Source: a phage. From it: a DNA stretch of 64,000 nt. Within the stretch, counting starts at the first letter, position 1; the number at the start of each line of letters is the position of its first letter. The position numbers and the translations under genes are program-made. The DNA is taken from sequence record PZ583739.1, one strand, 5' to 3'. Shown here one piece after another: positions 6,104-33,887 of this stretch. The notes under the pieces were generated by a model. The model made no database searches, had not been told where the DNA came from, and saw nothing but the letters and a program-made list of their open reading frames with translations.

Positions 6104-6645
6104 CAGATTGTCTCCTGTTTTACTTGTTTAACGATAGAAGCTTTTGTGATATCGCCTTTGATAATATAGCAATCTTCAACAGTACCACGGTTTAACAGAC
6201 GCTCTGCTTCGCCTTCCGCATATTCTTTTGACACATGACGAGAGTTAATCTCAATCTTGCCATTTTTAACCACAAGCAATTTCCAAACTGATGCAAGTTT
6301 TACTGGCACAGGTTCAACTTCTGGCTTAACACCAACTTCTGCCTGGATGAAATAATCAAATTCATCAGACAATGGACCAGCAGAAACAAACATTGCCCCA
6401 TGATGCCTGTTCTGTGTGCCAGATATTTTTGGCAAATCCACAAAATCATTTTCATCAATCAAACGAATCTCACAAACTTTTTTACCGCCGCTGATGTCAT
6501 CGGATAAAATCTTAACTTCAAACGGAGTCATACCGATGTATCCAGCAATTTGGTAATTGGCTGCCCAGCCTCCGGCAATAAACTGTTTTTTGGCATTTTC
6601 AGATACAAATTTGTAAAACTTACCTTCTTCAAAGAAATCGCTCAT
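6103..6645 (-). CDS. hypothetical protein
   Basis: 180-aa ORF with its own promoter cassette upstream. Confidence 0.5.
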   Translation of the reverse strand: MSDFFEEGKFYKFVSENAKKQFIAGGWAANYQIAGYIGMTPFEVKILSDDISGGKKVCEIRLIDENDFVDLPKISGTQNRHHGAMFVSAGPLSDEFDYFIQAEVGVKPEVEPVPVKLASVWKLLVVKNGKIEINSRHVSKEYAEGEAERLLNRGTVEDCYIIKGDITKASIVKQVKQETI

Positions 6646-6671
6646 TTTGTTTTCCTCATGTGTTGATGAAA

Positions 6672-6703
6672 TTCATTATACACCATCCATGGTGAAAGTA
6701 AAC
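6672..6703 (-). promoter_or_regulatory. early promoter
   Basis: minus strand GTTTAC (6698-6703 rc) - spacer - TATAAT (6675-6680 rc). Confidence 0.45.
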
Positions 6704-6705
6704 AC

Positions 6706-6984
6706 TTAAATTGCTTCGACAACTACCGTTTGTTTCTGGAAGTCCATTTTGCATGAAATAGCCAAAATATGGTTATCAATTTTAAATGGAACAATTGCAA
6801 ATGCTGCACCAGGCGTGAGTTGAACAGTGATTGCATCAACTGCATCCGGGAACATGATTTCCAGAATAGCAGACAAACGACCGTGCACTTTTAGTTCAGT
6901 CGACACGTCGACGCTTTCGTATAGATAATCAGATACAATCTGACTAAAAAGTACTTTAACAATTTCAGAATATGTAGGAAACAT
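6706..6984 (-). CDS. hypothetical protein
   Basis: 92-aa ORF. Confidence 0.4.
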   Translation of the reverse strand: MFPTYSEIVKVLFSQIVSDYLYESVDVSTELKVHGRLSAILEIMFPDAVDAITVQLTPGAAFAIVPFKIDNHILAISCKMDFQKQTVVVEAI

Positions 6985-7654: not shown

Positions 7655-8876
<1,222 letters not shown>

Positions 8877-8904
8877 AATAATTTCCCCAATTTTATAATC
8901 CGTA

Positions 8905-8939
8905 GGAGCATTATACTCTGCTCCCATGAGTTTGTACAC
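8905..8939 (-). promoter_or_regulatory. early promoter with stem-loop (PeSL-like)
   Basis: minus strand GTGTACA ... TATAAT; inverted repeat GGAGCA (8905-8910) / TGCTCC (8919-8924) around the -10. Confidence 0.5.
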
Positions 8940-9042
8940 TACTTTCCAAAAAGACCTTGAACACATAAAGTGGCCGCAATTCCAAAACAAAAACAGAATG
9001 CACCAAATCTAACAATATCCCAACCAAGGCTACAGTTCTCTA

Positions 9043-9333: not shown

Positions 9334-9683
9334 TTGGTGAGCTCCTGGAAGTCCCGGGCGAACTTATCAAAAGACTGATTAATCTGTTTTTCAACTAATT
9401 TAGGCTTCGCTACCACAACCTTAGTACGTTTTGCATCTGCACGGAGTTTATCATTTTCCTTCTGCAGAAGTTCAACATATTCCTGCCGCTCCTGGTCAAG
9501 GAGATTAATTTGATTAATTTGGTCTTTTACTGATTGCAGATTTTTCGCGTTATCTTCTGCAACTTTGGTGACCGCAGCCACCTCTGTCTTGAGATTATCT
9601 ACTTTTGCTTTTAGATAGAAACCACTACCAGCAGTTACTACCAGGGCGAGCATAAGCCCTGCAGTGAGATTACTTATTTGCAT
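9330..9683 (-). CDS. i-spanin-like protein (pseT.3 position)
   Basis: N-terminal TM helix (LMLALVVTAGSGFYL) followed by coiled-coil-like sequence; 117 aa. Confidence 0.6.
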   Translation of the reverse strand: MQISNLTAGLMLALVVTAGSGFYLKAKVDNLKTEVAAVTKVAEDNAKNLQSVKDQINQINLLDQERQEYVELLQKENDKLRADAKRTKVVVAKPKLVEKQINQSFDKFARDFQELTK

Positions 9684-10177
9684 AACTTGATGATTACCTC
9701 AACAATATCATCCTGGGATAAACCATTCAGGAGGATGTGATTTGTACTGTCAGACGCTGAAATGCGGAACTGATTACCAACTTCATCCGCCATATCATCC
9801 TGGGTTAACACTGGGTGTTTAATTCCCAGGCGGTGTTGAAGTGTCAGGGGTTCAACCACAACATAACAAACACATCCATTGATATGTACATTAGGTTGGG
9901 TCTGGTTAATGAACACTTCTGCATCATATTTAACCAAATGGTTCTTTAAGAATTCAACCATTTCAGGAACAGATTCATGCAGTGCTTCTTTCCGCTCTTC
10001 TGATTTTTTATCGCGATATTCTTTTTGTTTCGCCTTCAACTTTTTGTTAGAGGCGAGTTTTTTCCGCAGGTCAGTCATAAGACCAATTTTCTTGGTCCCT
10101 TTATAGACATAAATTCCGTCATGACGGTCACCATATTCATTGACAATCATTTCATTTGAAATCAGTTGCATATCCAT
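9674..10177 (-). CDS. alc: probable Alc-like protein (assigned by position and 167-aa length)
   Basis: start at ATG 10177 with SD GAGGAAAATATT; lies between rnlA and the spanins as in T4. Confidence 0.4.
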   Translation of the reverse strand: MDMQLISNEMIVNEYGDRHDGIYVYKGTKKIGLMTDLRKKLASNKKLKAKQKEYRDKKSEERKEALHESVPEMVEFLKNHLVKYDAEVFINQTQPNVHINGCVCYVVVEPLTLQHRLGIKHPVLTQDDMADEVGNQFRISASDSTNHILLNGLSQDDIVEVIIKLCK

Positions 10178-10190
10178 AATATTTTCCTCA

Positions 10191-10424
10191 TTAGTAGCGG
10201 TTATAACCCCGGGGACCAAAAGAGTTGGCACCCAGGCGCTCATCTTTCTTTTTGGCTCTTGCTCTAAACCCGGAATCACCTGTTTGAGCTTTCAGTTCTT
10301 TTAACAATTTGGCCTTTAGGTCAGTAATGAAACCAATCCGGCGGTCTCCCTTATAGACATAGATTCCATCATTTCTGTCACCATATGCCTTTGTAACTCT
10401 GTCATTTGTAATTAAGTTTAACAT
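10191..10424 (-). CDS. small protein paralogous to the N-terminal module of the downstream alc-like gene
   Basis: 77 aa from ATG 10424; shares YGDRxDGIYVYKGxxxIGxxTDLxxKL with the 9674-10177 product. Confidence 0.4.
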   Translation of the reverse strand: MLNLITNDRVTKAYGDRNDGIYVYKGDRRIGFITDLKAKLLKELKAQTGDSGFRARAKKKDERLGANSFGPRGYNRY

Positions 10425-10454
10425 GTTTTGGTCCTCATCAGTAGTTGATGGAAC

Positions 10455-10488
10455 CATTATGTATAGAAAGAAGGGGCTTGTACACCCC
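10455..10488 (-). promoter_or_regulatory. composite terminator hairpin / early promoter
   Basis: hairpin GGGG-cttgtaca-CCCC (10473-10488) follows rnlA; its loop carries the GTGTACAA -35-like motif, CATAAT at 10456-10461 rc. Confidence 0.4.
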
Positions 10489-10494
10489 TTTTTA

Positions 10495-11631
10495 TTATTC
10501 AGGAAGGATTACTTCCGCCTGGTAGTCTAACGGAATGTAAAGTTTATGATTTTTAAGGAAAACTTTATTGATTTGAGCAATCGTTTGTTCAGTTTCCTGT
10601 GGGCGTTGATAGGTGTTCATTAATACGGAGAACAATCCCGGATATGGTTTACATAACTCTTGACCTTTAATCGCAAACTCGCGACGGTCTTTTCCTGCTA
10701 ACTGTTTTTGTGCATCAAGCAACAGTCCAAGAGTGTTGGACAGATAATCCAGATGTGTTGCAGTAAAGGCAGTAACTTTTTCACGAGCATAAGTATCGCC
10801 AGTAAACATGGCAATAACATCATCCGCGCCGCCAGCAACAACAACTTCAAACAGTCGCTCATTATTATTAATGGAGTCTTTAGTATGATGCAGAGCACAA
10901 TACCATTCTGTTTTCATCTTGAACTTCTGACCGTTAGCCATCTCATAGACGAAGCCTTCAATCTCTTTCATACCGCGAACATTCTCAATGGTTGCCGGGT
11001 CATATGCTTCAACCAGGAAAGGACGAAGCGCTGCATCTTTGAACAGCTCCTGATAAGGAATATATTCACCAGTTTCATTATGACGAACGTTCAGTAAAAT
11101 CAGGTCACGTTCCTGGTAAGGCAAAACAATGCGGTTGGTCGGTGCAACATATTCCATGTTGCATGTATAACCAGCTTCAGTGATTTCAGTCACACGAGCC
11201 CTGAATGCACTGCGATGTTCTTGTTTAAACACCTGCAAGGATTCAGCTGCTTGGGAGCTTTTGATTGACCCTTTGGATTTAAAGGCGATATTGGTCTGGT
11301 CCATATAAGTGGAAACCAAACTACCATCAGCTTTTGCAGTAACCAGGACAACTTCATCAAGGTTAAGGTCCATGGTCATTGGATTCTCACCCAGATTAAA
11401 GAATTTTTCCATAGGACGAGCAGCAATGCGAACTGGACCATTGTCATCCATTTCAAACATAATGCCACGGCACTCCAGCGCATCATCAAGGAGCCAATCA
11501 CTATAGGAAGCATAGTTATAGCTAAAGATGCGGAACTTAGTTTCAAATGGAGAAACAAAATCCGTATAGAAAAACTTACCTTTATCAGATTCGGCGCAAA
11601 GCTTCATTAAGTTATCATATAATTCAATCAT
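10495..11631 (-). CDS. rnlA: RNA ligase 1
   Basis: 378 aa; ...FFYTDFVSPF...FRIFSYNYASYSDWLLDDALECRGIMFEMDDNGPVRIAARPMEKFFNL... matches T4 gp63 as remembered. Confidence 0.9.
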   Translation of the reverse strand: MIELYDNLMKLCAESDKGKFFYTDFVSPFETKFRIFSYNYASYSDWLLDDALECRGIMFEMDDNGPVRIAARPMEKFFNLGENPMTMDLNLDEVVLVTAKADGSLVSTYMDQTNIAFKSKGSIKSSQAAESLQVFKQEHRSAFRARVTEITEAGYTCNMEYVAPTNRIVLPYQERDLILLNVRHNETGEYIPYQELFKDAALRPFLVEAYDPATIENVRGMKEIEGFVYEMANGQKFKMKTEWYCALHHTKDSINNNERLFEVVVAGGADDVIAMFTGDTYAREKVTAFTATHLDYLSNTLGLLLDAQKQLAGKDRREFAIKGQELCKPYPGLFSVLMNTYQRPQETEQTIAQINKVFLKNHKLYIPLDYQAEVILPE

Positions 11632-18220: not shown

Positions 18221-18460
18221 TCACGCTTTCTTAGCGACTTTCCAGTCAGCTTTAAATTGGTCAACATCAGAGTGGTGAATCCAGAAACCAGATGAGCTAC
18301 CATCTTCATAAAGAGGACAACCATCACACTCATCTTTCCAACCCATCGCACATAAAGTTTCTTCAGCTTTTTCCAGGGCTTCTGGATTGTTACCCTGGAT
18401 TGTAAAGTACCATTTGCCTTTAACTTCTGAATCTTTGATGCTCTCACGTTGTAATTTCAT
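18221..18460 (-). CDS. hypothetical protein
   Basis: 79-aa ORF; its TGA stop lies inside the SD of the downstream gene. Confidence 0.45.
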   Translation of the reverse strand: MKLQRESIKDSEVKGKWYFTIQGNNPEALEKAEETLCAMGWKDECDGCPLYEDGSSSGFWIHHSDVDQFKADWKVAKKA

Positions 18461-18498
18461 TTTATTCTCCAGTGTTTTAGTTGTTAACTCAGTATGGG

Positions 18499-18531
18499 AC
18501 CATTATGTCATAGCCCCATTTGGTTGTACAC
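18499..18531 (-). promoter_or_regulatory. early promoter with conserved leader
   Basis: minus strand AAAAAGTAGTGTACAA ... CATAAT, then conserved leader ...CATACTGAGTTAAC... Confidence 0.5.
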
Positions 18532-18537
18532 TACTTT

Positions 18538-18804
18538 TTAAATTTTATCAAGCCATTTGCCAAGTTTAATCATTTCCTTGGTGGCTTTTTCCATACTTCT
18601 GAACTTAACTAATAAAGGATGAGTATCAACCCCCATAACAAGATTGGTTGCAAGACTGTGTTCACCAACAAGCCATAATGAGTATGTTTGAACATCCAGA
18701 CCATAATTTCTGTCTTTATGAACTCGTACACCCATTACTTCAAATTGATCGCTTGCTTTTTCTACTGCATCCAGGAAATCATCTTTAGTCATGTTAGACC
18801 CCAA
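18538..18804 (-). CDS. hypothetical protein
   Basis: 88-aa ORF. Confidence 0.4.
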   Translation of the reverse strand: MGSNMTKDDFLDAVEKASDQFEVMGVRVHKDRNYGLDVQTYSLWLVGEHSLATNLVMGVDTHPLLVKFRSMEKATKEMIKLGKWLDKI

Positions 18805-19226: not shown

Positions 19227-19454
19227 CTACGCTTGAATTAAGCCCATATAAAATTCAGCGTCTTCAGCATGCATACCGTCACAATACTCATCAGCCATAA
19301 AGCGAGTAAGGTCTTCAAGAGGACCTTGAACTTCAATTTGAATACTAAAGAATTGCGTATCTTTAATGTAAGTCATACTCAAAGAAGGATAGCGATTACG
19401 GATAACTTCGTAAGTGTATTCAAAATCAACGATATCAATATTAACCTTAGCCAT
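19227..19454 (-). CDS. hypothetical protein
   Basis: 75-aa ORF. Confidence 0.45.
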
Positions 19455-19478
19455 TTTATTTTCCTCATGTAGTTGATA

Positions 19479-19514
19479 GGTCTATAATAACATAATCATA
19501 GACCCGTTGTAAAC
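19479..19514 (-). promoter_or_regulatory. early promoter with stem-loop (PeSL-like)
   Basis: minus strand GTTTAC (19509-19514 rc) -17nt- TTATTA; inverted repeat GGTCTA (19479-19484) / TAGACC (19499-19504). Confidence 0.45.
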
Positions 19515-19516
19515 TG

Positions 19517-19879
19517 CTATTTGAAAGCTTTTTGTAGAAGTTCAATGATTTGGTCGACGTTATTAGCATCTACAACACAATTAATAGAAACCGCCCCCGA
19601 AGGTGTTTTCGTATAATTGGAGTATTCACGGAAGCAATAAAACTCTTCTTCACTAAGTTCAAAATAATCATCACCCATGCCATCATCATTATAGATTGCA
19701 CCATTAGCACAAATGATTTCGGTTACATAATCATAGCCGTCTGCACTTGATATTGATTTAACTTCAAACCAACCGCCATTTTCTTGGATGATGTCGACCA
19801 TACTAGCATTCGATGAACTAATATCAATGAAAGATTTAATACGATGTGGATTGAACTCATATTTTTTGCCGATTTCCAT
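19517..19879 (-). CDS. hypothetical protein
   Basis: 120-aa acidic ORF. Confidence 0.45.
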   Translation of the reverse strand: MEIGKKYEFNPHRIKSFIDISSSNASMVDIIQENGGWFEVKSISSADGYDYVTEIICANGAIYNDDGMGDDYFELSEEEFYCFREYSNYTKTPSGAVSINCVVDANNVDQIIELLQKAFK

Positions 19880-19914
19880 TTTTATTTCCTCAGTTGTTAT
19901 CAGTAGTTGATGGA

Positions 19915-19947
19915 ATCATTATGCCTTAGCTCAAAGGACTTGTACAC
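19915..19947 (-). promoter_or_regulatory. early promoter
   Basis: minus strand AAAAAGTAGTGTACAA ... CATAAT followed by leader TCAACTACTGA. Confidence 0.5.
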
Positions 19948-19958
19948 TACTTTTTGAA

Positions 19959-19984
19959 AATAAAAAAGGGACCCGAAGGTCCCC
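19959..19984 (-). terminator. rho-independent terminator after gene 32
   Basis: GGGACC-cgaa-GGTCCC (19968-19983) with flanking A/T runs. Confidence 0.6.
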
Positions 19985-22178: not shown

Positions 22179-23123
22179 TTAATAAAATTCAGCAATGTTT
22201 GCAGTTAGTTTAGACAAACCAGACTTAACAAAGTAAGGATAAACTTTACTTTTGGCTGGGATAACGTAATTATTATATCGTTCTAAGATTGAAGCGGATA
22301 TTTCCGTTGGGATAAAGTCCATATCAATCAACAATTGGTTTTCACAGAATCTATTATATTGCTCTTCTGTTAAAAGCGTTTTCAGCACGTCATGGTCGTA
22401 ATAGTTGAGAGCAATTTGTTCAAGCTCGGCTGCACGGGTTGGTGGAGTACGTTCACCTTCTTCATGAGTATAATAAAAATCACCACGAACCTTGATGCTT
22501 GACACGTTATCTTTTTTGTCACCTTTAACAACCTTTGTCACGCAATCCATAAGGGCATCGCCTGATTTAGTTTTGACATATTTTTTCTGCATCGGGGACC
22601 ATTGTTTCACCCCAGGGAATTTATGCAACTGTGTAAAGTCACCATCCGAAGAAACAATCATAACCGGATGTCCTAGACTAGTGAGCAACTTCGTTAATAC
22701 TGCAATATGGTCATCAGCCTCGACTTTATCCATATTCATCACGATGTAAGGCATGTATTTTTCCATTTCATCGATGATGATGTGCATGGCAGCATGTAGA
22801 CCTTCCCAATCGAATTGAGACTCTTCACGAGCCTTTGCACGGTTTTTCTTATAATAATAAGATTTAGTCCGGCGCCAATAGCCATTCTTCGAGTTATCAA
22901 CACAAATAATTGGAATTGTATAACCAAGCTTTTTGAACTGTACGATATTTTTTCGGATAGAGTTCAGAACCAAGTGTCTGGTCATTGCAGTTGTTACTTT
23001 CGGAAAGCCTGCGTCTTTGCCGAATTCCTGAAAGGCTGCAGCCATGATGAGCTGACTAAAATCGAGTAACTGAAAACCTTCTTTTTGACGGTCTTCTTCA
23101 GGGAGTAAAAAATCTAAATTCAT
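22179..23123 (-). CDS. rnh: RNase H (5'-3' exonuclease / flap endonuclease)
   Basis: 314 aa; ...GYWRRTKSYYYKKNRAKAREESQFDWEG..., ...DHIAVLTKLL..., ...SSDGDFTQLHKFPGVKQWSP... match T4 RNase H as remembered. Confidence 0.9.
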   Translation of the reverse strand: MNLDFLLPEEDRQKEGFQLLDFSQLIMAAAFQEFGKDAGFPKVTTAMTRHLVLNSIRKNIVQFKKLGYTIPIICVDNSKNGYWRRTKSYYYKKNRAKAREESQFDWEGLHAAMHIIIDEMEKYMPYIVMNMDKVEADDHIAVLTKLLTSLGHPVMIVSSDGDFTQLHKFPGVKQWSPMQKKYVKTKSGDALMDCVTKVVKGDKKDNVSSIKVRGDFYYTHEEGERTPPTRAAELEQIALNYYDHDVLKTLLTEEQYNRFCENQLLIDMDFIPTEISASILERYNNYVIPAKSKVYPYFVKSGLSKLTANIAEFY

Positions 23124-23218: not shown

Positions 23219-26200
23219 ATGGCCGATATTTTAAAACCAGCATTCAGAGCAACATCCGGTCTCGATGCTGCTGGTGAGAAAGTCATTAATGTCGCAAAAG
23301 CTGATTACTCAGTTTTATCAGACGGCGTTAACGTAGGTTTCTTTATAGAAGAAAACACAATTCAACAATATGATGCGACGCGCGGATACAAAAAGAACTT
23401 TGCGGTTATTAATGATAACCGTATTTGGGTTGCTCAACGTGATATTCCGGCACCAGCTGGAGCATTTACCCCTCAGTATTGGTTAGCAACTCGTACTGAC
23501 CCTAAATGGGAAACTGTTGCATCTCCAACTCGTCAGCTTAGCTCCGGGGAATTTATCGCAGTCGACTCAGCTGCAAGCTTTACCACATTTACATTGCCTC
23601 CGAACCCGACTGATGGTGATACCATCGTTATTAAAGATATCGGCGGTAATACCGGTTATAATGAAATTAAAGTTCAATCGAGCAATGTGCCTGGTCAAGG
23701 TAACCAAAAGATTGTTCGCTTTGGTAATCAGTATCCGGAAATTTTAATTACCAAACCATTCTCTTATAACATGCTTATCTTTTCAAACCGCTTATGGCAA
23801 TTTTGGGAAGCTGGCAACGAAGAACGTGGCATCAGAATAGAACCATCGACAGGTCGTTTCCATGCACAAGCTGGCGACTTTATTATGCGTCGTTATACAA
23901 CTGGTGCACCGATTACTTTCATTCTTCCTAAGTATGCAAACCAGGGTGATATTGTCAAATCTGTTGATATCGATGGCATGGGACCAACGTTCCACCTGAT
24001 GGTTGAAACCTTTGACACCAGTTCCAGTCTTGGGAAAGCTGGCCAGCATCAAATGGAATTCCGTACCACAGGTGATGGTTTCTTCGTTTATGATGCTGCC
24101 GAAAAACTCTGGCATGTTTGGGACGGTGATTTTAAAACTCGTCTTCGCGTTATTCGCGACAGCGTTAAACTTTTACCAAACGAAAGTGTCATTGTATTTG
24201 GCGAAGATAACTCAACTCCGGCAACGATTAATATCGATTTGCCAACTAATGTTTTGCAAGGCGATATTGTTAAGATTGCGCTGAACTATCTCCGTAAATC
24301 GCAGACTGTTAATATAAGAGCTGCTGTTGGCGATAAGATTGCAACTGACATTAAATTGCTGCAATTCCCTAAACGTTCCGAGTATCCACCAGATACAACT
24401 TGGGTGATGGTTGATTCATTGACCTTTAATGGCAACATCAGTTATACTCCGGTTATTGAATTATCATATGCAGAAGATGCAGTGTCTGGAACAAGTTATT
24501 GGGTTGTCGCTCAGAACGTCCCGACTGTCGAACGAGTTGACTCATTAAATGATTCCACGCGTACACGTCTTGGTGTTATTGCTCTGGCAAACCAGACTCA
24601 GGCAAACGTTGACCATGAAAATAACCCAGAAAAAGAACTCGCAATTACCCCTCAGACTTTAGCCAACCGTGTTGCTAAAGAGAACCAACGAGGCATTGCC
24701 AGAATCGCAACGACTGCTCAAGTAAATCAGAACAGTGATTTTGCATTTGTTGATGATGTAATTATTTCTCCGAAAAAACTCAATGAACGTACGGCAACAG
24801 AAACGAGACGCGGGCTCGCAGAACTCGCCACACAGCAAGAAACCGATGCGGGTGTAGATGATACCACAATTATAACTCCAAAGAAACTGCAAGCTCGCCA
24901 GGGCTCAGAATCGCTATCCGGTATTGTAACTTACGTTTCAACGACTGGTGCAACTCCTGCTGCTTCGCGTGAATTAAATGGTACAAACGTTTATAATAAA
25001 AATACGGTTAATCTGGTTGTTTCTCCGAAAGCTCTTGACCAGTACAAAGCTACTTACACCCAACAAGGTGCGGTTATTCTTGCGGTTGAAAGTGAAGTAA
25101 TTGCTGGTACTTCTCAATCTGGATGGGCAAACGCAGTCGTTACTCCAGAAATGTTGCATCGCAAAACTGCTCTTGATTCCCGTATCGGTTTAATCGAGAT
25201 TGCAACTCAAGTAGAAACAGATGCAGGAACCGATTATACCAGAGCTGTGACTCCTAAAACGTTAAATGACCGTAAAGCATCAGAAACGTTAACCGGCATA
25301 GCCGAGATTGCTACGCAATCAGAATTTGATACTGGAACTGATGATACTCGTATCTCAACTCCATTAAAAATTAAAAATAGATTTAATAATACTGCTCGTA
25401 CTTCTGTTAATGCATTAAGTGGTTTAGTAGAAACAGGGACGCTCTGGGACCATTATAGCCTGAATATTCTTGAAGCAAATGAGACTCAGCGTGGTACGGC
25501 AAGATTAGCAACTCAGGGTGAAGTCAATACCGGCACTGACGATAAAACAATCGTTACCCCGCTTAAATTGATGTCGAAAAAAGCCACTGAAAATGCCGAA
25601 GGTATTGTTCGCATCGCGACAAACGCAGAAGCAACAGCAGGTACATCAAAAGTCTTGGCCATCAGTCCGTCAGCGCTGAAATATATTGCACAAACGGAAA
25701 CAACCTGGGAAGCATCTGAAACCCTACGTGGATTTGTTCGTTTATCTTCTGGTACAGCTACTTCGGCCGCAACTACAACGACTGGTGCAGGATTTACATA
25801 TGCAAATGGCGTGTATACTCCGGACCCAAGTAAACTGGTTAGCTACGCAAAATCTGGATATGCAGTTTCACCTTACGAATTAAACCGCGTATTGCAAAAC
25901 TTCCTACCGATAAATGCGATGGCTGTTAATGCTGAAAAACTGGATAACCTTGATTCGACCCAGTTTATTCGTCGTGATATTGCTCAGACTGTTGAAGGTG
26001 TGTTAACTCTTACCAAACAGACAAATATATCTGCTCCGGTTGTATCGACGAGCACTGCAGTGTTTACTGATGTAACGGCTGGCACTTCGACGTTCGGAAC
26101 TGTGAACGTTGTTAACGGAACTAACAAGTGGAAAATCACCGCTCCTTCCACCGGAACGACAATGACTATTGGCGATACGACTAACGTATTGACATTAAAC

Positions 26201-27175
26201 ACCGCCTCGGGTAATGCTGCTGTACTGAACAACCTTAGCGCCGGAAATGATGTTCAAGCCAAAAATAATTACGTTCTAAATGGTCGTACTATCGCAACCA
26301 CAACGGGTGAAGCTTCTGGTGCAACTCTGGCTCTGGGTGATAACTCGCAGAATTTAGTGCTTAAAACTCTTGATGCTGGTAATATCATAGCAAATGGTGG
26401 CGGTGCATTTAAAGTCCTGACCGAGAAAAACGCTGTTGAGATTGTAGATAGAAACTTTGTTAACCAAGGCGGTGATACAATGTCTGGTGTGCTCCATGTG
26501 AATGCTCCGGTCCGTGTATTCGGTACGAAACCAAGTCTTATCGCACAAGCTCCGACTGCAGATACTGTTGGCTTCTGGTCTGTCGATATCAATGATGAAC
26601 CGACTTATAGTCAGTTCCCTGGTTATTGGACAATGAAGTTAAAACGTCAGGTAAACATTGATACAGTTCAAACTAAACCTGCTGGGGTAACTGATGAAGT
26701 TTGGAATGCTTCTGGTTGGTTAACTGAAAATGGAACTTTCGCCTCGCCTGTTATTCGTTATCGTAATGACGATGGTACACTCGGTGATGAAGTATTAGGT
26801 AGCTCTGGCCAAAAACTGCGCGGAACCTGGTTTGACTATTCGGTTCGTGATAAGGAAGTTAAATACCCTGGTACGTTAACTCAGTTTGGTAATACATTGG
26901 ATTCATGTTATCAGGATTGGGTGTGTTATCCAACTGGATTGAACGGTGGTACTATTCGTTATACTCGTACATGGCAGAAAAATAAATCTGCATGGACGAC
27001 TTTTGCAATGGTTTACACCGCGGATAACCCTCCGTCTGCAGAGGATGTTGGTGCATTACCGGCCGACAACACAACAATGGGGAACTTAACCATTCTCGAT
27101 TGGTTGCGTATCGGTAACGTGCGCATCATCCCAGACCCGACCACTAAATCCGTTAAGTTTGAATGGGTTGAATAA
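23219..27175 (+). CDS. 34: long tail fibre proximal subunit gp34
   Basis: 1318 aa; N-terminus and C-terminal ...GNLTILDWLRIGNVRIIPDPTTKSVKFEWVE match T4 gp34 as remembered. Confidence 0.92.
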   Translation: MADILKPAFRATSGLDAAGEKVINVAKADYSVLSDGVNVGFFIEENTIQQYDATRGYKKNFAVINDNRIWVAQRDIPAPAGAFTPQYWLATRTDPKWETVASPTRQLSSGEFIAVDSAASFTTFTLPPNPTDGDTIVIKDIGGNTGYNEIKVQSSNVPGQGNQKIVRFGNQYPEILITKPFSYNMLIFSNRLWQFWEAGNEERGIRIEPSTGRFHAQAGDFIMRRYTTGAPITFILPKYANQGDIVKSVDIDGMGPTFHLMVETFDTSSSLGKAGQHQMEFRTTGDGFFVYDAAEKLWHVWDGDFKTRLRVIRDSVKLLPNESVIVFGEDNSTPATINIDLPTNVLQGDIVKIALNYLRKSQTVNIRAAVGDKIATDIKLLQFPKRSEYPPDTTWVMVDSLTFNGNISYTPVIELSYAEDAVSGTSYWVVAQNVPTVERVDSLNDSTRTRLGVIALANQTQANVDHENNPEKELAITPQTLANRVAKENQRGIARIATTAQVNQNSDFAFVDDVIISPKKLNERTATETRRGLAELATQQETDAGVDDTTIITPKKLQARQGSESLSGIVTYVSTTGATPAASRELNGTNVYNKNTVNLVVSPKALDQYKATYTQQGAVILAVESEVIAGTSQSGWANAVVTPEMLHRKTALDSRIGLIEIATQVETDAGTDYTRAVTPKTLNDRKASETLTGIAEIATQSEFDTGTDDTRISTPLKIKNRFNNTARTSVNALSGLVETGTLWDHYSLNILEANETQRGTARLATQGEVNTGTDDKTIVTPLKLMSKKATENAEGIVRIATNAEATAGTSKVLAISPSALKYIAQTETTWEASETLRGFVRLSSGTATSAATTTTGAGFTYANGVYTPDPSKLVSYAKSGYAVSPYELNRVLQNFLPINAMAVNAEKLDNLDSTQFIRRDIAQTVEGVLTLTKQTNISAPVVSTSTAVFTDVTAGTSTFGTVNVVNGTNKWKITAPSTGTTMTIGDTTNVLTLNTASGNAAVLNNLSAGNDVQAKNNYVLNGRTIATTTGEASGATLALGDNSQNLVLKTLDAGNIIANGGGAFKVLTEKNAVEIVDRNFVNQGGDTMSGVLHVNAPVRVFGTKPSLIAQAPTADTVGFWSVDINDEPTYSQFPGYWTMKLKRQVNIDTVQTKPAGVTDEVWNASGWLTENGTFASPVIRYRNDDGTLGDEVLGSSGQKLRGTWFDYSVRDKEVKYPGTLTQFGNTLDSCYQDWVCYPTGLNGGTIRYTRTWQKNKSAWTTFAMVYTADNPPSAEDVGALPADNTTMGNLTILDWLRIGNVRIIPDPTTKSVKFEWVE

Positions 27176-27183
27176 GAGGTAAT

Positions 27184-28314
27184 ATGGAAAAATTTATGGC
27201 AGAGTTTGGACAAGGATACGTCCAAACGCCAGTTATATCAGAAAATAATGCCGTTAAATTTAAAATGAGTATAGCAGGGAGCTGTACTCTTTCCACGGTG
27301 AAATCGTATATCAAATTTCAGGATGAACAAATCGGACCAACTACTTTTGGCAATGGTTTGACTCTATTAGAAATTGATACAACTACGAATAAAATTGTTA
27401 ACACGAAAAACTATTCATTGACCAGCACACATGATGTAATCAGTCAGGCATTAATCACCTTTGTGGAATCTGTTCCAGCTGGAAGATTGATTGCTTTTAT
27501 TTCTTCTGGGAAACTAAATGCCTCGCAAACATTAATTGACTGGCTTCGTAAATGTGGCTCAAGAGCATTCCCCGAGAAATGGCTGATTGATAAAGTTGAT
27601 ACATCGTACTCGGCTTTTTACATAACCGGCCGGAACGTAATTGTTTCGGAGCATGTTAAGTATAATGACGGGAAGTTAGTTGAGGATGTTTCGACTCCGC
27701 TTGAAGTCGTTTATGATACCTTTAGTGATATAGGAGCAACAGGCTATCCTGTGCGCATAACGGAAGACGAGAGCACGTATTCATCAACAGGTGATGGAAC
27801 ATCAACCTCAATTAGAAGGTTCCCCACAGAGGACCTGGTGACTCCTATGAGCACATATAACCTTTTACCTTTGGATGTGCTTTACCTGAAGTTTCAGATG
27901 TCATTTGACGCTGAACTGAAAGCCGCCGGGACTGTAAGGACTTCGGTTCGATTCTTTAAAAGTCCTAGCACTTCTCCGATATCAAATACAAACATCGATA
28001 TTGCAGCAAACGTTCCAGCTGGTGCATGGGTAAGTTTCGAAAGATATGTTGAGATTCCAGCGGGAGCCGATGGCTTTACAGTAGTAACATCAAGGACTGT
28101 AGCTGTGGGAACTGGGTCAATACGTAATATTGTTATTGGTGAGATAACCAGAGGTGACTCGGCATTCAAACCAGCTGAATTTGGTGTCAACGGCATAAGG
28201 ATGTCATATGCAAACGATGCAACAAATACAGGCAATACAATTGTAACATTACCAGATGCACAAGCTCCGAGAGCCGGCAAGATATACGCAGCCGAACTAC
28301 GAGAAAAACAATAG
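27184..28314 (+). CDS. 35: long tail fibre hinge protein gp35
   Basis: 376-aa ORF immediately after 34, SD GAGG; position and size as T4 gp35. Confidence 0.8.
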   Translation: MEKFMAEFGQGYVQTPVISENNAVKFKMSIAGSCTLSTVKSYIKFQDEQIGPTTFGNGLTLLEIDTTTNKIVNTKNYSLTSTHDVISQALITFVESVPAGRLIAFISSGKLNASQTLIDWLRKCGSRAFPEKWLIDKVDTSYSAFYITGRNVIVSEHVKYNDGKLVEDVSTPLEVVYDTFSDIGATGYPVRITEDESTYSSTGDGTSTSIRRFPTEDLVTPMSTYNLLPLDVLYLKFQMSFDAELKAAGTVRTSVRFFKSPSTSPISNTNIDIAANVPAGAWVSFERYVEIPAGADGFTVVTSRTVAVGTGSIRNIVIGEITRGDSAFKPAEFGVNGIRMSYANDATNTGNTIVTLPDAQAPRAGKIYAAELREKQ

Positions 28315-28336
28315 GACTCTTCGGAGTCCTTTTTTC
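28314..28336 (+). terminator. rho-independent terminator after gene 35
   Basis: GGACTC-ttcg-GAGTCC followed by TTTTTT. Confidence 0.6.
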
Positions 28337-28338
28337 GT

Positions 28339-28346
28339 TATAAATA
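28339..28346 (+). promoter_or_regulatory. late promoter (TATAAATA) for gene 36
   Basis: exact TATAAATA directly after the terminator, about 35 nt before the gene 36 ATG. Confidence 0.6.
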
Positions 28347-28381
28347 CAAAATATCATATGCCGGTTGAAGAGGACTTATAA

Positions 28382-29029
28382 ATGGCAGATTTAAAACTAG
28401 GCTCAACAGCCGGAGGTTCGGTCCTCTGGCACCAGGGTAATTTCCCATTAACACCAGTCAGTAATGACTTATATTTCAAAACTTATAAAATTTATTCCGA
28501 ATATAACAAGCCACAAGCAGTCGATAACGATTTCGTTTCTAAAGCTCTTGGTGGTAATTATAAAGCAAACGTATATTTTGAACAAGGCCTGACATTTAAT
28601 GATTCAAATGGTTACGGGATTAAGTTGGGGGCGAGAACGGGCGGTGCACCATTTACAGCATCTTTCCGTATTAAAGGGCCGTTTGGATTTGAGACTGAAA
28701 CGGGAACACCATTCGTTATTTTTGACCCTGACACTACGACAGGAGCAAAACGTCTTACTGTTATGGGTGATACGTTAGCTCGACAGATTTATGATGAAAC
28801 AGGACGTGTATTTTCTCCAGGGAATACTCCGTCAAAAGCTCAAGTTGGTCTTAGTAATGTAACTAACCAGCAACAGGTGGAACTAAATAATAGTACATTG
28901 CAAACAATGACAGGTAACTTGTCAGCACCTAATTTCTTCTCTAGGAACCCAGCATCAGACCCGGCTCACGTGCCCCGTTTTGACCAAATCGTTCTTAAAG
29001 ACTCCGTACAAGATTTTGGATATTATTAA
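28382..29029 (+). CDS. 36: long tail fibre distal connector gp36
   Basis: 215-aa ORF between 35 and 37; MADLKLGSTAGGSVLWHQGNFPL... Confidence 0.8.
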   Translation: MADLKLGSTAGGSVLWHQGNFPLTPVSNDLYFKTYKIYSEYNKPQAVDNDFVSKALGGNYKANVYFEQGLTFNDSNGYGIKLGARTGGAPFTASFRIKGPFGFETETGTPFVIFDPDTTTGAKRLTVMGDTLARQIYDETGRVFSPGNTPSKAQVGLSNVTNQQQVELNNSTLQTMTGNLSAPNFFSRNPASDPAHVPRFDQIVLKDSVQDFGYY

Positions 29030-29037
29030 GAGGCATT

Positions 29038-32000
29038 ATGGCTACTTTAAAACAAATACAATTTAAAAGAAGTAAGGTTGCCGGCGTTCGCCCGGCGCCA
29101 ACAGTTCTTGCCGAAGGTGAACTGGCTATCAACTTGAAAGACCGCTTACTTTTTACTAAAGATGACACCGGCGCCATCATTGACCTTGGCTTTGCTAAAG
29201 GCGGTAATATTGATGGTAACGTTATTCATAACGGTAACTACACCCAAACCGGTGCCTATACTATAGCCGGAGCTATTTCACAAACGTCTGGACATTTTAC
29301 TACTACTGGTAATATAATAGCAACCGGTGATGTCACAGCAAAAGCCCGTTTAATGACAGATAATGGTGAAGTTCTTGTACGAGGTACAGGAACCACTCAT
29401 GTTCGATTCCAGGATTTGGCTGATGCTCGAGAAAGAGGTATAATTTATTCTCAAAACCGTACTGGGGATACCAAGCAAATCTTGAACGTTCGTGTTCAGG
29501 ATTACACTAATTCAACATCTAATATTTTTGCATTCAACGGCGATGGTTTATTTTATGCTCCGTCTATTTCCAGCGGAACATCGGTGAAATCTCCAGTAAT
29601 TTATACTAATACCGTTGATACTGGTAATAAATCAGCTCTTGATTATGATATATCTTCATTAGCAAATAATAATCCTGCAAGTTCAAGCGCAACAGCTATT
29701 AACTATCTTAGAATAAGTAGACACGCTGTCGATGGAATTAGGTATCGTGAACTTAATAATGTAAATGGTATTTCATGGCATTCTATTTCTACAGCCGGAA
29801 CAGCTAAGTATCTTTGGTCATTTAATGCAGATGGCGATGTCAAAACATCAAATTCTCTTTCCGTTGGCCTACCTGGGGATAGCTCAGGATACTCAACATT
29901 AGGTCCGTCTGCTATCGCACTTGGTGACAATAACACAGGTTTGAAATGGAAACAAGACGGTCAGTTCCATACAATTAATAATGGAGCTTATACTTTACTT
30001 ACATCTCCAACTGAAGTTACAAGCCTTAAACAGTTAGTTGCGGGTTATTCAACCAACGGTTCTGATTTAATTCTTCCTACAACTCAAAACTATCCATTAG
30101 TTATTGTTAATACTACTAATGATAAAAACGGCTTCGGCGACGGTCAAACTCTTTTAGGTTACCACCAAAGCGGCAAATATCACCATTATTTTCGTGGCAA
30201 AGGTGTAACAAACGTTAACACCGATGGTGGGTTGTTGGTTACTCCTGGCAACGTTGAAGTCCGTGGTGGTTCGGTTAATATTGATGGTCTCAGTAATGCT
30301 TCGACAGTGCTTTTTAAAGGAAATACAACAGGAAGTAGTTCAGTTGATAATATAGAGCTCAAAGTTTGGGGTGACACTTTTAATACAGTAGATGGTTCTC
30401 GTAAAAACGTAGTGGAAATATCCGATGCTACTAGCTGGATGCACTATATTCAACGAACTACAGCAGGTAAAGTCGAATCCTATTTAAATGGTACCATGAA
30501 TGTAATTGAAGGATTGTCTGTCAATCAAGATACATCCTTAAAACGCAATCTGTATGTTTCCAATGAAATTAAAGTTCGCGCGGCGAGTGGTCTTCGTATT
30601 TGGAACGATAAGTACGGTGTTATTTTTCGAAATTCAGAAGACCAGCTGCATATTATCCCAACCAATGTTAATGCCGGCGAAAGTGGCGGATTAGGTCCAT
30701 TACGCCCATTAAGTATTATGTTAGACACGGGTCTGGTTAAAATCCCTAACTTAGAAGCAGACCAGGTTTCTTTTAAGGGTAGCGGCGTATTAGAATTCCC
30801 TAATAGTAGCGGCGCATCTTATGCCAACCAGAACACGACTAAAGCTCCGTTGTATCAAGCACTTGATGCTGCGACTCAAGCATTTTATCCTATTACTAAG
30901 CAGAAAAATATCGATTCGAATGTAACTGTTACGCAAGGTATGGACCGAGCTACGAGCGAATACCGAATTGTTGCCCAAGGTGATTTGCTTGGCGATGGCG
31001 TTACAACCGGATTAAAATACTGGCGCTTTACCAAAGAAGGTAACTTCATGGCCCAGAACCGCTTATATGCCGGTACAGCTTATATGAATACCGATGGTAA
31101 TATTGCAGGTTCTATTTGGAAAAAGTATAGCGGTGCTACTAACCTTGACGCAGCGGTGAATACTCGTGTAGGTAAAGGCGGCGATACAATGACAGGTAAA
31201 TTGGTCATTGATGCTCCAGGCGATCCTTTAGTATTAAAAACAACCGCAGGTAATAGCTCGCATATCCGTTCTGATGTAAATGGTACCGGCAACTGGTATG
31301 TTGGTAAAGGTGGCGATGATAACGGAATAGCTCTTTACAGTTATGCTACCAACTCGGGTATGTACATCACTAATGATGGGGCTTTCAACGTAGAACTTTC
31401 TGGTGCTGGCTTAGCAATGCAGATGAATTATTATCGCATGTATGTTAATGGCCGAGCATGGGTTAATACACAAGGTCATGGTTACGGAAACCAATGGCAA
31501 ACAGAAGCTCCTTATTTCGTCGACTTTGGTGAATCTGTTCCTAAAGATAGCTATATGCCAATTATCAAAGGAAAAAGCACTCTAATTACCGACGGATATT
31601 CTACTAAAGCAGACTTTGGTATTATTCGATTAGGTGGAGCTGCTACTTGGGGTTCTGCTGTTATTCGTGTGGGTTCTGCCGAAAGCGGCGATGCAAGCCA
31701 TCCTAATGCAATATTTGTATTTCAGGCCAATGGTGATTTTGTTGCACCTGCCGGTTTACGAGCCAGAGCTAACCTAGGCGTGGGCACAATCCCGGTATGG
31801 GGCGGCGCATCCATTGCCATTGGGGACGATGACACCGGCTTAGTCCATGGTGGTGACGGTCGAATTAATATGTATGCTAACTCGCAACATATTGCAAGCT
31901 GGGGAGCCGGTTATCAGATTCATGAAGGTCTTTGGGATACCCATGGGGCTTTGTGGACTGAAACAGGAAAAGCTATTATTTCTTATGGGCATTTAGTCCA

Positions 32001-32382
32001 ACAAAGTGATGCCTATTCTACATATGTCCGTGATGTGTATGTCCGTTCTGATATTCGTGTTAAAAAAGACCTTGTTAAATTTGAAAATGCTTCTCGGAAG
32101 CTTTCTAAAATTAACGGCTACACATATATGCAGAAACGTGGAACTGACGAAGAAGGTAATCAGAAATGGGAACCTAATGCTGGTTTAATTGCTCAAGAAG
32201 TTCAAGCTATTTTACCTGAATTGGTTGAAGGCGACCCTGATGGTGAAGCTTTACTTCGTTTGAACTATAACGGTGTAATTGGTTTAAATACAGCTGCAAT
32301 CAATGAGCACACTGCAGAAATAGCAGAATTGAAATCAGAGATTGAAGAACTTAAAGCTTTAGTTAAATCATTGTTAAAATAA
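29038..32382 (+). CDS. 37: long tail fibre distal subunit gp37 with C-terminal chaperone-like module
   Basis: 1114 aa; [43 protein letters not shown]... matches gp37 N-terminus; C-terminal SDIRVKKDL...GYTYMQK... then heptad-like [22 protein letters not shown]. Confidence 0.88.
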
Positions 32383-32387
32383 TAAGA

Positions 32388-32401
32388 GGGGCTTCGGCCC
32401 C
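32388..32401 (+). other. intergenic GC hairpin between genes 37 and 38
   Basis: GGGGC-ttcg-GCCCC directly before the gene 38 SD; no strong T-run, so probably not a full terminator. Confidence 0.35.
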
Positions 32402-32413
32402 TTGGAGGTTTAT

Positions 32414-33196
32414 ATGGCAGTAGTAGGACCGTGGGTAGGGTGGTCTGCGAGGGTACAAACTGGGGACCCTTGGATGGGCGGCGCTGCCCAACGATTGAGA
32501 ATGGGTATTCCGTTTTGGATGAGTAATATGGTAGGTCGGTCTGTTGAAATAATTCACACACTTGGAGCCGACCATAACTTTAACGGGCAATGGTTTAGAG
32601 ACCGTTGTTTTGAAGCCGGTGCTGCCCCTATTGTGTTTAATATCACAGGTGATTTAGTATCTTATACTAAAGATGTTCCGTTGTTCTTTATGTATGGCGA
32701 TACCCCTAATGAATACGTTACTTTGAATATTCACGGCGGGGTCCATATGTGGGGCCGTGGTGGTAACGGTGGGACCCGTGTTTGGGTAGCGGGTACAAAT
32801 GGTGGTGATGTAATTCAAAACGACATTGGTGGCAGACTCCGTATCTGGAACTATGGCGTTATAGCTTCAGGGGGCGGCGGCGGTGCCGGATGTGCTTCAA
32901 ATAACTCTTGGCTTGTGGCGGGTACAGCTGGTGGCGGTGGCGGTAGACCATATGGATTAGGTGGTACTAATGGCGCCGTAAACCCAGGCGGCAACGCTAG
33001 TTATACCGGACCAGGTGGCGGTGGTAGCTTTGGTGGACAGTGGGGTGGTGGTAATGGCGGCGACGCGGGTGGGGCTGGTGGCGGCGCTTACGGACGAAGC
33101 GTTACATACGGCTCACAAGGCGGAGCTGGACGAGCTGTATTCGGAAGTTCTCCTTCATGGGGCGCTACAGGCACTATCTACGGCTCCTGGCTATAG
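32414..33196 (+). CDS. 38: T2-type receptor-binding adhesin gp38 (glycine-rich motifs)
   Basis: ATG 32414 after SD GGAGG (track start 32402 is TTG); [11 protein letters not shown]...; C-terminal half has poly-Gly motifs separated by variable segments. Confidence 0.85.
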
Positions 33197-33207
33197 TACA
33201 TAAGCGC

Positions 33208-33215
33208 TATAAATA
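33208..33215 (+). promoter_or_regulatory. late promoter (TATAAATA) for holin gene t
   Basis: exact TATAAATA about 20 nt upstream of the t ATG. Confidence 0.55.
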
Positions 33216-33233
33216 TCTTTAAAGGAGAAAAGT

Positions 33234-33887
33234 ATGGAACCAAAAGTAGGAATATCAATACCCGACCTACTTTTTGGACTTCTTGATAGAATTTTTAAAG
33301 ATAATGCGACCGGGAAAGTTGTTTTTTCCCGGGTACTAGTTATTGTTCTATTATTTTTAATGGCGGTAATCTGGTATAAAGGTGATGCACTTTTAGATGC
33401 GTACAGGGATGCTTCATATGCCTCATACACAGAAATGATAAGGCAAGACCAGGACAACAGATTTAAAATTGCAGCTATCGAGCAAATCCAGATAGTCCAC
33501 TCGTCAAGTGGGGCAGACTTTACAGCAATATATTCTTTTAGACCAACTAACCTTAACTACTTTGTGGATATGGTGGGATACGAGGGGATATTGCCTGATA
33601 CAGTCGACGAAAAAAATTTAGGTGGGTTTCCAATAGATAAAACTTCGGCGGAATATTTGGCGGGGGTTAATGGTAATTATTTTGAATCCAGTACGGAATC
33701 TGTATTCTTACCAACAAAGAAAAAAAGCAGCTTCTCATATATGTTCAGCTGCCCATTCTTTAATTTGGAAAACGTTTATGCAGGTACAGTCTCACTGTAC
33801 TGGTATAAGCAAAAACCTAACCTTGGTTTTGATAGGCTTTCTGCTATGTGTGGACAAGCAGGTCGTACGCTTGGGCGTACACGTTAG
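33234..33887 (+). CDS. t: holin
   Basis: 217 aa; ...DLLFGLLDRIFKDNATGKV..., ...LNYFVDMVGYEG..., C-terminal ...MCGQAGRTLGRT match T4 holin T as remembered. Confidence 0.9.
   Translation: MEPKVGISIPDLLFGLLDRIFKDNATGKVVFSRVLVIVLLFLMAVIWYKGDALLDAYRDASYASYTEMIRQDQDNRFKIAAIEQIQIVHSSSGADFTAIYSFRPTNLNYFVDMVGYEGILPDTVDEKNLGGFPIDKTSAEYLAGVNGNYFESSTESVFLPTKKKSSFSYMFSCPFFNLENVYAGTVSLYWYKQKPNLGFDRLSAMCGQAGRTLGRTR

Follow-up and report, generated by a model that had tools for sequence, protein, structure and literature searches.

Early-promoter-like cassettes with conserved leaders, hairpins and RegB-type start contexts on the minus strand of a T4-like phage

What are the roughly twenty closely similar intergenic sites on the minus strand of phage DNA PZ583739.1, a 64-kb stretch that is called the window below? 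An earlier note, which flagged positions 18461-18531, described them as one modular cassette, matched it to the promoter-early-stem-loop (PeSL) cassettes of T4-type phages and proposed that it marks the insertion points of small accessory genes. The cassettes are here read, with good confidence, as early promoters of a T4-type phage for host sigma-70 RNA polymerase, packaged as regulatory cassettes of the PeSL kind and likely serving pulse expression. In line with this, the genes downstream are, by synteny, classic T4 early genes: asiA, the motA region, ndd, motB, srd, modA, modB, alc, sp, frd.1/.2 and 30.7/30.8. The window has a GC content of ~40% and shares 91-97% identity with phages of the VR7/VR20/SP18 group from Escherichia, Shigella and Yersinia; by this sequence evidence its source is a VR7/VR20/SP18-type T4-like phage of the genus Gaprivervirus, Tevenvirinae. 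Gene names were assigned by synteny with the annotated SP18 and VR7 records.

The strict pattern GTGTACA-N16-19-YATAAT was matched 11 times in the window, always on the minus strand, against 0.02 matches expected. A family-specific weight matrix, built from 15 seeds and used at a threshold score of at least 14 with Markov shuffles as control, gave 20 matches on the minus strand and none on the plus strand, compared with 0.8 in the shuffles; five of the 20 were not among the seeds. The claim of about twenty minus-strand sites with a shared module was thereby confirmed. All 18 sites listed at the time carry it, and the list had missed those of asiA (34209) and modB (56439). The similarity also held under multiple alignment of the 20 copies using MAFFT, in which the TAC of the -35 box, -11A and -7T are invariant and an A-tract (consensus AAAAAGnA) lies immediately 5' of the -35 box; the presence of an A-tract was also a condition of the module scans. 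If TGTACA or TTTACA is taken as the -35 box, 16-18 nt (most often 17) separate it from the -10 box, (C/T)ATAAT. Every one of the 20 cassettes has a Shine-Dalgarno sequence (SD) and ATG on the transcribed strand, 20-43 nt past the putative +1, which would be the A seven nucleotides after the -10 box. The flagged cassette, that of frd.1 (DUF5417; 18458-18543, minus strand), reads exactly as it had been described, with aaaaagta, GTGTAC (18526-18531), aaccaaatggggctatga, CATAAT (18502-18507) and ggtcccatactgagttaacaactaaaacaCTGGAGAATAAAATG (18458-18460, the ATG).

Cassettes fall into clusters at 2.5-3.1, 6.7-10.5, 18.5-19.9, 34.2-40.4, 50.6-56.4 and 63.1-63.7 kb of this single window, and the matrix scan found none in the plus-strand tail-fibre block or in the long core operons. 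It is very improbable that the sites are middle promoters dependent on MotA, or that the pattern arose by chance or from base composition. The -10 box is common to middle promoters and GCTT occurs in site 63723, but a MotA box, (a/t)(a/t)TGCTT(t/c)a centred at -30, is present in none of the 20 cassettes, which have their element at -35 and a 17-nt spacing, and the middle-promoter reading was rejected on this ground; neither the shuffles nor the 20:0 strand bias leaves room for chance. Two further sites were noted on the minus strand. The matrix match at 22915-22950, inside the rnh open reading frame (ORF; 22179-23123), scores 14.8 with TCGTAC, 19 nt and TACAAT, and is probably a false positive, though it could be an internal promoter. 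At 40703-40762, GTTTACA, 17 nt and AATAAT with TG upstream lie below the matrix threshold and are followed by a hairpin, GTCCTCAtaccaacaaaTGAGGAC, over the SD of the next ORF; this is a possible 21st, weaker cassette.

Two conserved leaders had been reported, and both are present: class A (CCATACTGAGTTA) and class B are distinguished in the alignment by a single 5-nt indel (CCAT-----ACTGAG versus CCATCAACTACTGA). A third, smaller class exists as well (GACCCCACTGGAG / GCTCCTACGGATT). In every true copy the leader stands in a fixed register, 4 nt past the -10 box. The leader and ribosome-binding-site (RBS) words exceed shuffle expectation 7- to 60-fold: CCATACTGAGTTA has 6 matches (0.10 expected), five of them leaders and one stray, ATCAACTACTG has 8 (1.2 expected), and the RBS word CTGGAGAATAAAATG, which the flagged cassette carries together with a class-A leader, has 8 (0.33 expected), of which 7 are at cassettes. 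The recurrent initiation contexts of the earlier description are thus far above chance; one of them, GAGGAAAATATTATG, is not specific to cassettes, since only 4 of its 13 matches (0.28 expected) are at cassette genes, and is a general RBS of the phage. At 38855-38875, 39496-39515 and 39660-39680 (minus strand), CTTTAACTT(A/C)TGAGGAAA stands immediately 5' of the ATG at several genes, and we take its TTTAACTT part to resemble the 'epsilon' translational enhancer of T7 gene 10 (UUAACUUUA).

Conservation was measured over 85 cassette-by-relative ortholog comparisons. Identity is 98.8% in the -10 box, 98.6% in the first 12 transcribed nucleotides (+1..+12), 98.0% in the RBS, 96.6% in the -35 box, 95.3% in the discriminator and 93.5% in the spacer, against 88.3% at third codon positions of the downstream genes; the leader is therefore conserved as strongly as the -10 box. 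The dexA-side cassette (51718) is 98-100% identical across 34 genomes. Morganella phage MP1, of the genus Gualtarvirus, has the class-A leader five times within 3 kb, with leaders intact and spacers diverged, one of these copies being orthologous to the flagged frd.1 cassette. In T4, cef and motB.2 have class-B-like leaders, and the cef spacer is a perfect 13-nt complement of the leader. By itself, the leader of a promoter-initiated transcript is predicted to be essentially unstructured (MFE, or minimum free energy, 0 to -3.4 kcal/mol, positive z-scores). An Rfam search of the whole window matched no family. When IMG/VR was scanned for the class-A leader, 89 of 106 matches were chance 15-mers without promoter context, and the true copies came only from isolate genomes of this phage group; a blastn search at E<1e-3 did not find the leader in T4. 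In MP1 (KX078569, 940-1040), a composite terminator (GGAACCttcgGGTTCC) with TTTTTTATTTT, A-tract and GTGTACA is conserved in this different genus, and its T-run is identical to those at 3039, 19918 and 36454 of the window.

The conserved 12-24 nt at the transcript start might be a separate cis-element, either a site for a phage factor, for example in early-promoter shut-off, or a sequence tuned for promoter escape. We consider this rather improbable. It would account for a leader that is as conserved as the -10 box, held in register, kept across genera while the spacer diverges, and devoid of RNA structure of its own or an Rfam match, and how early promoters and early mRNAs are shut off is mechanistically unexplained in both T4 reviews. 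Two leader classes and a third do not make a single site, however, and much of the conservation could be due to common descent combined with selection for an open, well-translated leader. At the same low probability, the cassettes could be four-part pulse modules whose leader (AUACUGAGUUA / AUCAACUACUG, 12-24 nt) is functional in its own right from Gaprivervirus to Gualtarvirus and T4, possibly as a shut-off cis-site.

The cassette anatomy given earlier was right in its boxes, leaders and RBS, and had left the hairpins unnoticed. Most cassettes also have one, with a mean MFE z-score of -1.8 and 10 of 20 below -2, and it takes one of four positions. UUCG-loop terminators with a TTTTTTATTTT tail stand directly upstream at 3039, 19918 and 36454; a stem surrounds the -35 box, with a T-run in the spacer, at 10456 and 63723; the 5' arm lies in the spacer and the 3' arm at -6..+5, enclosing the -10 box, at 2596, 8910, 18502, 19484, 38888, 40386, 50640 and 63143; and long stems pair promoter DNA with SD and ATG at 39796, 56439 and 10456. 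In the flagged cassette, the stem ATGGGGC/GGTCCCAT spans the -10 box (z -2.85). Spacers pair with their own post-(-10) segment at -7.7 kcal/mol compared with -5.35 kcal/mol for cross-partners, a value that none of 5000 permutations reached.

Covariation was examined in the motB/ndd-type sub-family, for which IMG/VR was searched with the two variable 5'-arm positions set to N and the 3' arm outside the pattern. All six pairs were kept in 26 of 27 distinct natural variants, through three Watson-Crick solutions (GGGAGC/GCTCC(C/T), GGGGTC/GACCCC and GGGACC/GGTCC(C/T)) and the wobble variants GGGGCC and GGGATC. The non-Watson-Crick pairs are all G.T on the sense strand and never A.C, and this speaks for a structure formed by the sense transcript. 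Among these variants is the sequence upstream of T4 motB, whose hairpin is that of cassette 50640 apart from two compensatory pairs; this T4 site is presumably a mapped early promoter. The modB hairpin shows compensatory T-A to C-G and wobble changes among relatives (VR7, TH54, TH40), and T4 modB has the same architecture, -10 region with SD, built from unrelated sequence. On this comparative evidence, the stem-loop around the -10 box of motB/ndd-type promoters, that of T4 motB included, appears to be under selection.

As published, a PeSL begins with AT-rich sequence, continues with a sigma-70-like promoter, has a stem-loop whose position varies, and ends in SD plus ATG (Arbiol 2010, Comeau 2014). 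PeSLs are further characterised by a preference for hyperplastic, ORFan-rich regions and by promoter activity, terminator activity and the formation of mini-circles, for which reporter fusions and inverse PCR were used (Arbiol 2010). The cassettes have these features: A-tract, sigma-70-like boxes ~17 nt apart, stem-loop, and SD with start codon at the 3' end. Their layout is that of the PeSLs of RB49/phi1, T4/PST and KVP40/nt-1, with which they also share G.T pairs in stems and perhaps clustering in ORFan-rich early regions; in stem position they are nearer to RB49/phi1 (over the -10 box) than to T4/PST (upstream). They differ in having a conserved leader and a RegB-type SD, which the published PeSL description lacks, and in not being enriched at indel breakpoints. 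The proposed PeSL match consequently stands for the anatomy, co-varying stem-loop included, and fails for the association with breakpoints. PeSL-like sequences in the JS98 group were mentioned in passing only (Arbiol 2010), and the MP1 paper merely counted promoters (12). The literature searched did not describe, for this group, the GTGTACA variant, its leaders or a RegB-type RBS module, and it contained no Gaprivervirus promoter analysis or transcript data.

Could the hairpins act mainly as translational gates, in which a 5' arm (spacer or -10 box) pairs with SD and AUG in read-through transcripts only, while transcripts begun at the cassette promoter have no such arm and would be translated, in the manner of T4 e, soc, 49 and I-TevI? 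For the family as a whole we hold this reading doubtful. The T4 precedent is documented in the T4 post-transcriptional review. At modB (56439), a 15-bp stem lowers the computed accessibility of SD/AUG to 0.12 in read-through RNA, compared with 0.69 in promoter-initiated RNA, and the hairpin is supported by the compensatory and wobble changes in relatives and by the T4 modB architecture; similar accessibility effects were obtained at 10456, 51718, 3039 and 19918, and at 39796 an 18-bp stem in the whole-cassette MFE fold pairs the spacer with SD and ATG. Computed accessibility at 39796 is nevertheless unchanged (0.46 versus 0.45), and the commonest hairpins (GGGGTC/GACCCC type) stop before the SD and leave it free. 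Mean SD/AUG accessibility is 0.49 in read-through and 0.63 in promoter-initiated RNA, a mean gain of 0.136 against 0.058 in 94 control genes (p=0.047), so gating is not general. Occlusion of the SD was accordingly dropped as a general hairpin function, being marginal and the property of a subset. The T4 hairpins of e, soc, 49 and I-TevI resemble modB 56439, and also 39796 and 10456, in placing a promoter inside a 5' arm that sequesters SD and AUG; there, late promoters restrict translation to late times, whereas in the window the promoter is an early one and a minority of cassettes is concerned.

The start context points to the phage endoribonuclease RegB, which inactivates early mRNAs by cutting GGAG/U in initiation regions and whose strong intergenic site, also dependent on S1, has the consensus GG*AGRAYARAA (T4 post-transcriptional review). 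The GGAGAATAAAA of the cassette RBS fits this consensus exactly and occurs at 7 cassette sites, within intergenic early leaders as in T4; a RegB target has its GGAG/U unpaired, and the cassette leaders are predicted to be unstructured. SDs of the GGAG type are found at 8 of 20 cassette genes and 10 of 94 others (odds ratio 5.6, p=0.003). The lineage encodes RegB: CJ20, a 94%-identical relative of the window, has a homolog with 59.7% identity over 97% of the protein. In the ndd, motB and pseT-upstream sub-family, GGA(G/U) follows the hairpin by 1-3 nt, apart from the true SD, and it does so in all 27 motB/ndd-type variants. The idea that GGAGAATAAAC past the motB hairpin is a relic RBS was dropped, GGA(G/U) being conserved there in T4 and the 27 variants. 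Cleavage, described for T4, is predicted for the window from the motif, and about half of the cassettes have a GAGGA-type SD without GGAG.

Compared with T4 early promoters, which are UP/-35/TGn/-10 promoters with additional consensus regions (Hinton's review), the cassettes share the A-rich UP element, the GTTTAC-type -35 box, 17-nt spacing, TAtAAT, extra consensus sequence and the same early genes; Alc, ModA, ModB and AsiA are early products (Hinton's review). T4-type early promoters are recognised by the unmodified host sigma-70 holoenzyme and fire at once on infection, with no need for phage protein synthesis. The upstream regions of T4 motB, cef, motB.2, srd and modB are recognisable counterparts of window cassettes. 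Differences are the dominant -35 box, which is GTTTACA in T4 and GTGTACA in the window, the lack of a TGn extended -10 in the window, and the class-A leader, of which the 16 kb of T4 that were examined have no copy.

We propose that each cassette is built of up to five parts: often a hairpin, in the form of a genuine terminator immediately upstream or of a stem that encloses the -35 or -10 box; an A-tract (AAAAAGTA) resembling a proximal UP element; a -35 box (G)TGTACA or (G)TTTACA, a 17-nt spacer and a -10 box (C/T)ATAAT; a fixed discriminator G(A/G)(T/C)(T/C)C(C/T) with one of two related initial transcribed sequences, AUACUGAGUUA or AUCAACUACUG, which would give a short unstructured leader; and SD plus ATG, frequently GGAGAAUAAAAUG, which could double as a RegB consensus site. 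Very strong promoters would be fired by host RNA polymerase straight after infection, the open leader would be translated efficiently, and RegB would then cut the GGAG (GG^AGAAUAAAA), inactivating and destabilising messages that contain GGAGAAUAAAA. The hairpins would fold in the sense strand of read-through RNA from promoters further upstream and keep adjacent units apart, terminating transcription where there is a U-run behind the stem and, at a few genes such as modB, hiding SD and AUG.

Several points weigh against this account. Promoter activity, the start ~7 nt past the -10 box, RegB cleavage (from a motif match) and hairpin action are all deduced from the DNA. A generic sigma-70 scan of the region did not discriminate (65 promoter-like sites, 57.8 in shuffles), and the -35 box TGTACA agrees with TTGACA at 4 of 6 positions only. 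Most hairpins that span the -10 box have no U-run and are thus not canonical terminators. Covariation was formally tested in the motB/ndd-type sub-family only. Sense and antisense folding differ in the cassettes by no more than they do in control coding DNA; a structure at the RNA level is therefore argued from the wobble pattern and not from energetics. The excess of SD occlusion over controls is slight and due to about five sites, chiefly modB, and class-B cassettes with GAGGA-type SDs have no GGAG.

The remaining claim was that the cassettes mark insertion points of small accessory genes. The window was compared with TH40, TH54, TH55, TH44, VR7 and SP18, counting indels or replacements over 25 bp against SD-aware gene calls. 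Breakpoints occur at 8 of 19 gene boundaries that bear a cassette and at 31 of the 91 that do not (Fisher p=0.6); restricting the count to boundaries whose intergenic gap is 25 nt or longer gave 8/19 and 13/30 (p=1.0). The claim did not survive this comparison, nor did the association with small genes, which was rejected on size: cassette-driven ORFs have a median of 105 aa, compared with 95 aa for their neighbours (p=0.71).

It is accordingly unlikely that the cassettes are primarily recombination substrates for PeSL-mediated modular shuffling that mark insertion sites of small accessory genes. Besides the lack of enrichment and of a size difference, orthologous cassettes are highly conserved and not mosaic, and most junctions resolved to the nucleotide, ~17 of them, lie not in promoters but in direct repeats of 5-22 nt in SD/ATG modules or stop/start overlaps, which are present at most genes (a 17-nt repeat at 19452/19182; also 40345/40188, 18214, 39661 and 8877). 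The largest window-specific inserts, ORFs 47683-48483 and 59629-60396 (both minus strand), have no cassette and are missing from most or all six relatives; the first is a homing endonuclease with GIY-YIG, NUMOD3 and I-TevI-type DNA-binding domains (E=3.5e-11), the second has a weak, sub-threshold HNH match. In favour of shuffling, a minority of indel events look PeSL-like. The 30.6A insert of TH54 and SP18 is bounded by two terminator hairpins, of which the window carries a hybrid (3084-3105); at 63759-63768, inserts of 424-725 bp come with a terminator and promoter of their own; other inserts lie immediately upstream of the -35 box at 56472-77 and 63176-96; and paralogous cassettes share spacer sequence beyond what promoter function needs. 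In TH44 (MT446415), the spacer of the motA-upstream cassette (aatccccttgtcttagga; window 36454) differs from the window ortholog at 7 positions and agrees in 17 of 18 with a cassette specific to TH44 that lies at a distance of 26 kb, in the 725-bp insert at window 63759; the two paralogous cassettes appear to have undergone gene conversion.

The other cassettes, all on the minus strand, are described in order of position. That of gene 30.7 (2555-2636) has GTTTAC 2619-2624, TATTAT 2596-2601, RBS CTGGAGAATAAAATG and ATG 2555-2557; its -10 box is enclosed by the stem GGTACAGGT/ACCTGTACC, which has a core of 9 bp and is extended in the predicted fold (z -3.25). Gene 30.8 (2995-3107) has GTTTAC 3063-3068, CATAAT 3039-3044, a class-A leader, CTGGAGAATAAAATG and ATG 2995-2997, preceded by the UUCG-loop terminator GGGACTCttcgGAGTCCC with T6AT4, inside which an indel junction lies. 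The cassette of a 180-aa ORF (6643-6715; GTTTAC 6698-6703, TATAAT 6675-6680) has a palindrome, CACCATggATGGTG, in the spacer and a class-B variant leader. That of a 106-aa ORF before pseT (8874-8951; GTGTAC 8934-8939, TATAAT 8910-8915) has the stem GGGAGC/GCTCCT across the -10 box, followed by GGAU. The N-terminal alc ORF is preceded by a cassette at 10422-10497 (-35 box 10480-10485, CATAAT 10456-10461, class-B leader) with a stem GGGG(tgtacaa)GCCCC and T-run around the -35 box and, in read-through RNA, a predicted 11-bp hairpin over the SD (z -3.1). In this lineage alc is split or frameshifted (9674-10424, minus strand), being represented by two ORFs, 10191-10424 and 9674-10279, that match the SP18 annotation alca/alcb.

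The cassette of a 75-aa FRD3-family ORF (19452-19526; GTTTAC 19509-19514, TATTAT 19484-19489) has the stem GGGTCTAT/ATAGACCT across the -10 box; this ORF is missing in SP18, with a 17-nt RBS repeat at the junction. The frd.2 cassette (19877-19984) consists of UUCG terminator with T6AT4, GTGTAC 19942-19947, CATAAT 19918-19923 and class-B leader. In the asiA cassette (34157-34262; GTGTAC 34233-34238, TATAAT 34209-34214), the -35 box is the 3' arm of the hairpin TTGTACACAT..ATGTGTACAA. The cassette of a 71-aa ORF and motA (36402-36521) comprises a terminator at 36504-36521, GTGTAC 36478-36483, CATAAT 36454-36459, a class-A leader and TTGGAGAATAAAATG. At ndd (38841-38929; GTGTAC 38912-38917, TATAAT 38888-38893), the stem GGGGTC/GACCCC across the -10 box is directly followed by ACUGGAG. 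The cassette at 39767-39836 (TTGTAC 39819-39824, TATAAT 39796-39801) drives only a 36-aa hydrophobic mini-ORF (MIMKKLLKVIWNMFVLLMVLSIFP..., 39659-39769), and in its 18-bp hairpin the leader, SD and first ATG are paired with the spacer (z -3.2). That of a 51-aa ORF (40345-40428; GTGTAC 40411-40416, TATAAT 40386-40391; RBS CTGGAGAATAAAATG) has a spacer, CAGTATGGAGTC, that pairs with the class-A leader GATTCCATACTG (z -2.8).

The motB cassette (50595-50681; GTGTAC 50664-50669, TATAAT 50640-50645), counterpart of the T4 motB upstream sequence, has the stem GGGGTC/GACCCC followed by GGAGAATAAAC in the leader. The motB ORF itself (50037-50597) differs from TH54, TH55 and VR7 by an in-frame indel of ~45 nt (15 codons) at 50304-50348, with a junction ambiguity of 14-18 nt. 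An 85-aa ORF adjoining dexA has its cassette at 51684-51759 (GTGTAC 51742-51747, CATAAT 51718-51723), with class-B leader and stem CTCATCA/TGATGAG, and the srd cassette (55032-55122; GTGTAC 55105-55110, TATAAT 55082-55087) has a class-A variant leader (CCGTACTGAGTTA). The weaker modA cassette, site 55835 (55804-55879; GTGTAC 55862-55867, class-B leader), has a weak -10 box, TAAGAT (55838-55843), yet is in exact register with the other copies, and the same sequence is present in five relatives. In the modB cassette (56409-56480; GTTTAC 56463-56468, CATAAT 56439-56444), the 15-bp hairpin CATAATGGTCTTTCT..AGAGAGACCATTATG pairs the -10 box with SD and ATG (z -3.9). The sp (spackle) cassette (63112-63184; GTTTAC 63167-63172, TATATT 63143-63148) has the stem GGGGTAAT/ATTATCCC across the -10 box and a class-B leader, with inserts just upstream in relatives. 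That of a 105-aa ORF (63694-63764; GCTTAC 63747-63752, TATAAT 63723-63728) has a class-B leader fused to CTGGAGAATAAAATG and a terminator-like stem GGGGC(ttaca)GCCCC with T-run around the -35 box (z -3.4).

The window is arranged in three gene blocks. The first (1-23,150, minus strand) contains 30.x, rIII, 31, cd, pseT, alc, rnlA, denA, nrdB/A, td, frd, frd.1/.2, 32, 59, 33, dsbA and rnh; the second (23,219-33,887, plus strand) the tail-fibre genes and t; and the third (33,884-64,000, minus strand) asiA, arn, motA, 52, ndd, denB, rIIB, rIIA, 39, goF, cef, motB, dexA, dda, srd, modA, modB, soc, 56, 61, sp and dmd.

The cassettes belong to a known kind, to which the hairpin covariation, the exact RegB-consensus start context and the deeply conserved initial transcribed sequence are modest additions. 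For Gaprivervirus they provide a coordinate-level map of putative early transcription units, which should be useful for annotation and for engineering therapeutic T4-like phages. The RegB-consensus start context suggests a built-in off-switch, and the first 12 transcribed bases are a cheap and concrete target for mutagenesis. The PeSL shuffling model is tempered: gene gain and loss in this lineage appear to be about equal at all boundaries and to proceed mostly through short SD/ATG repeats and homing endonucleases.

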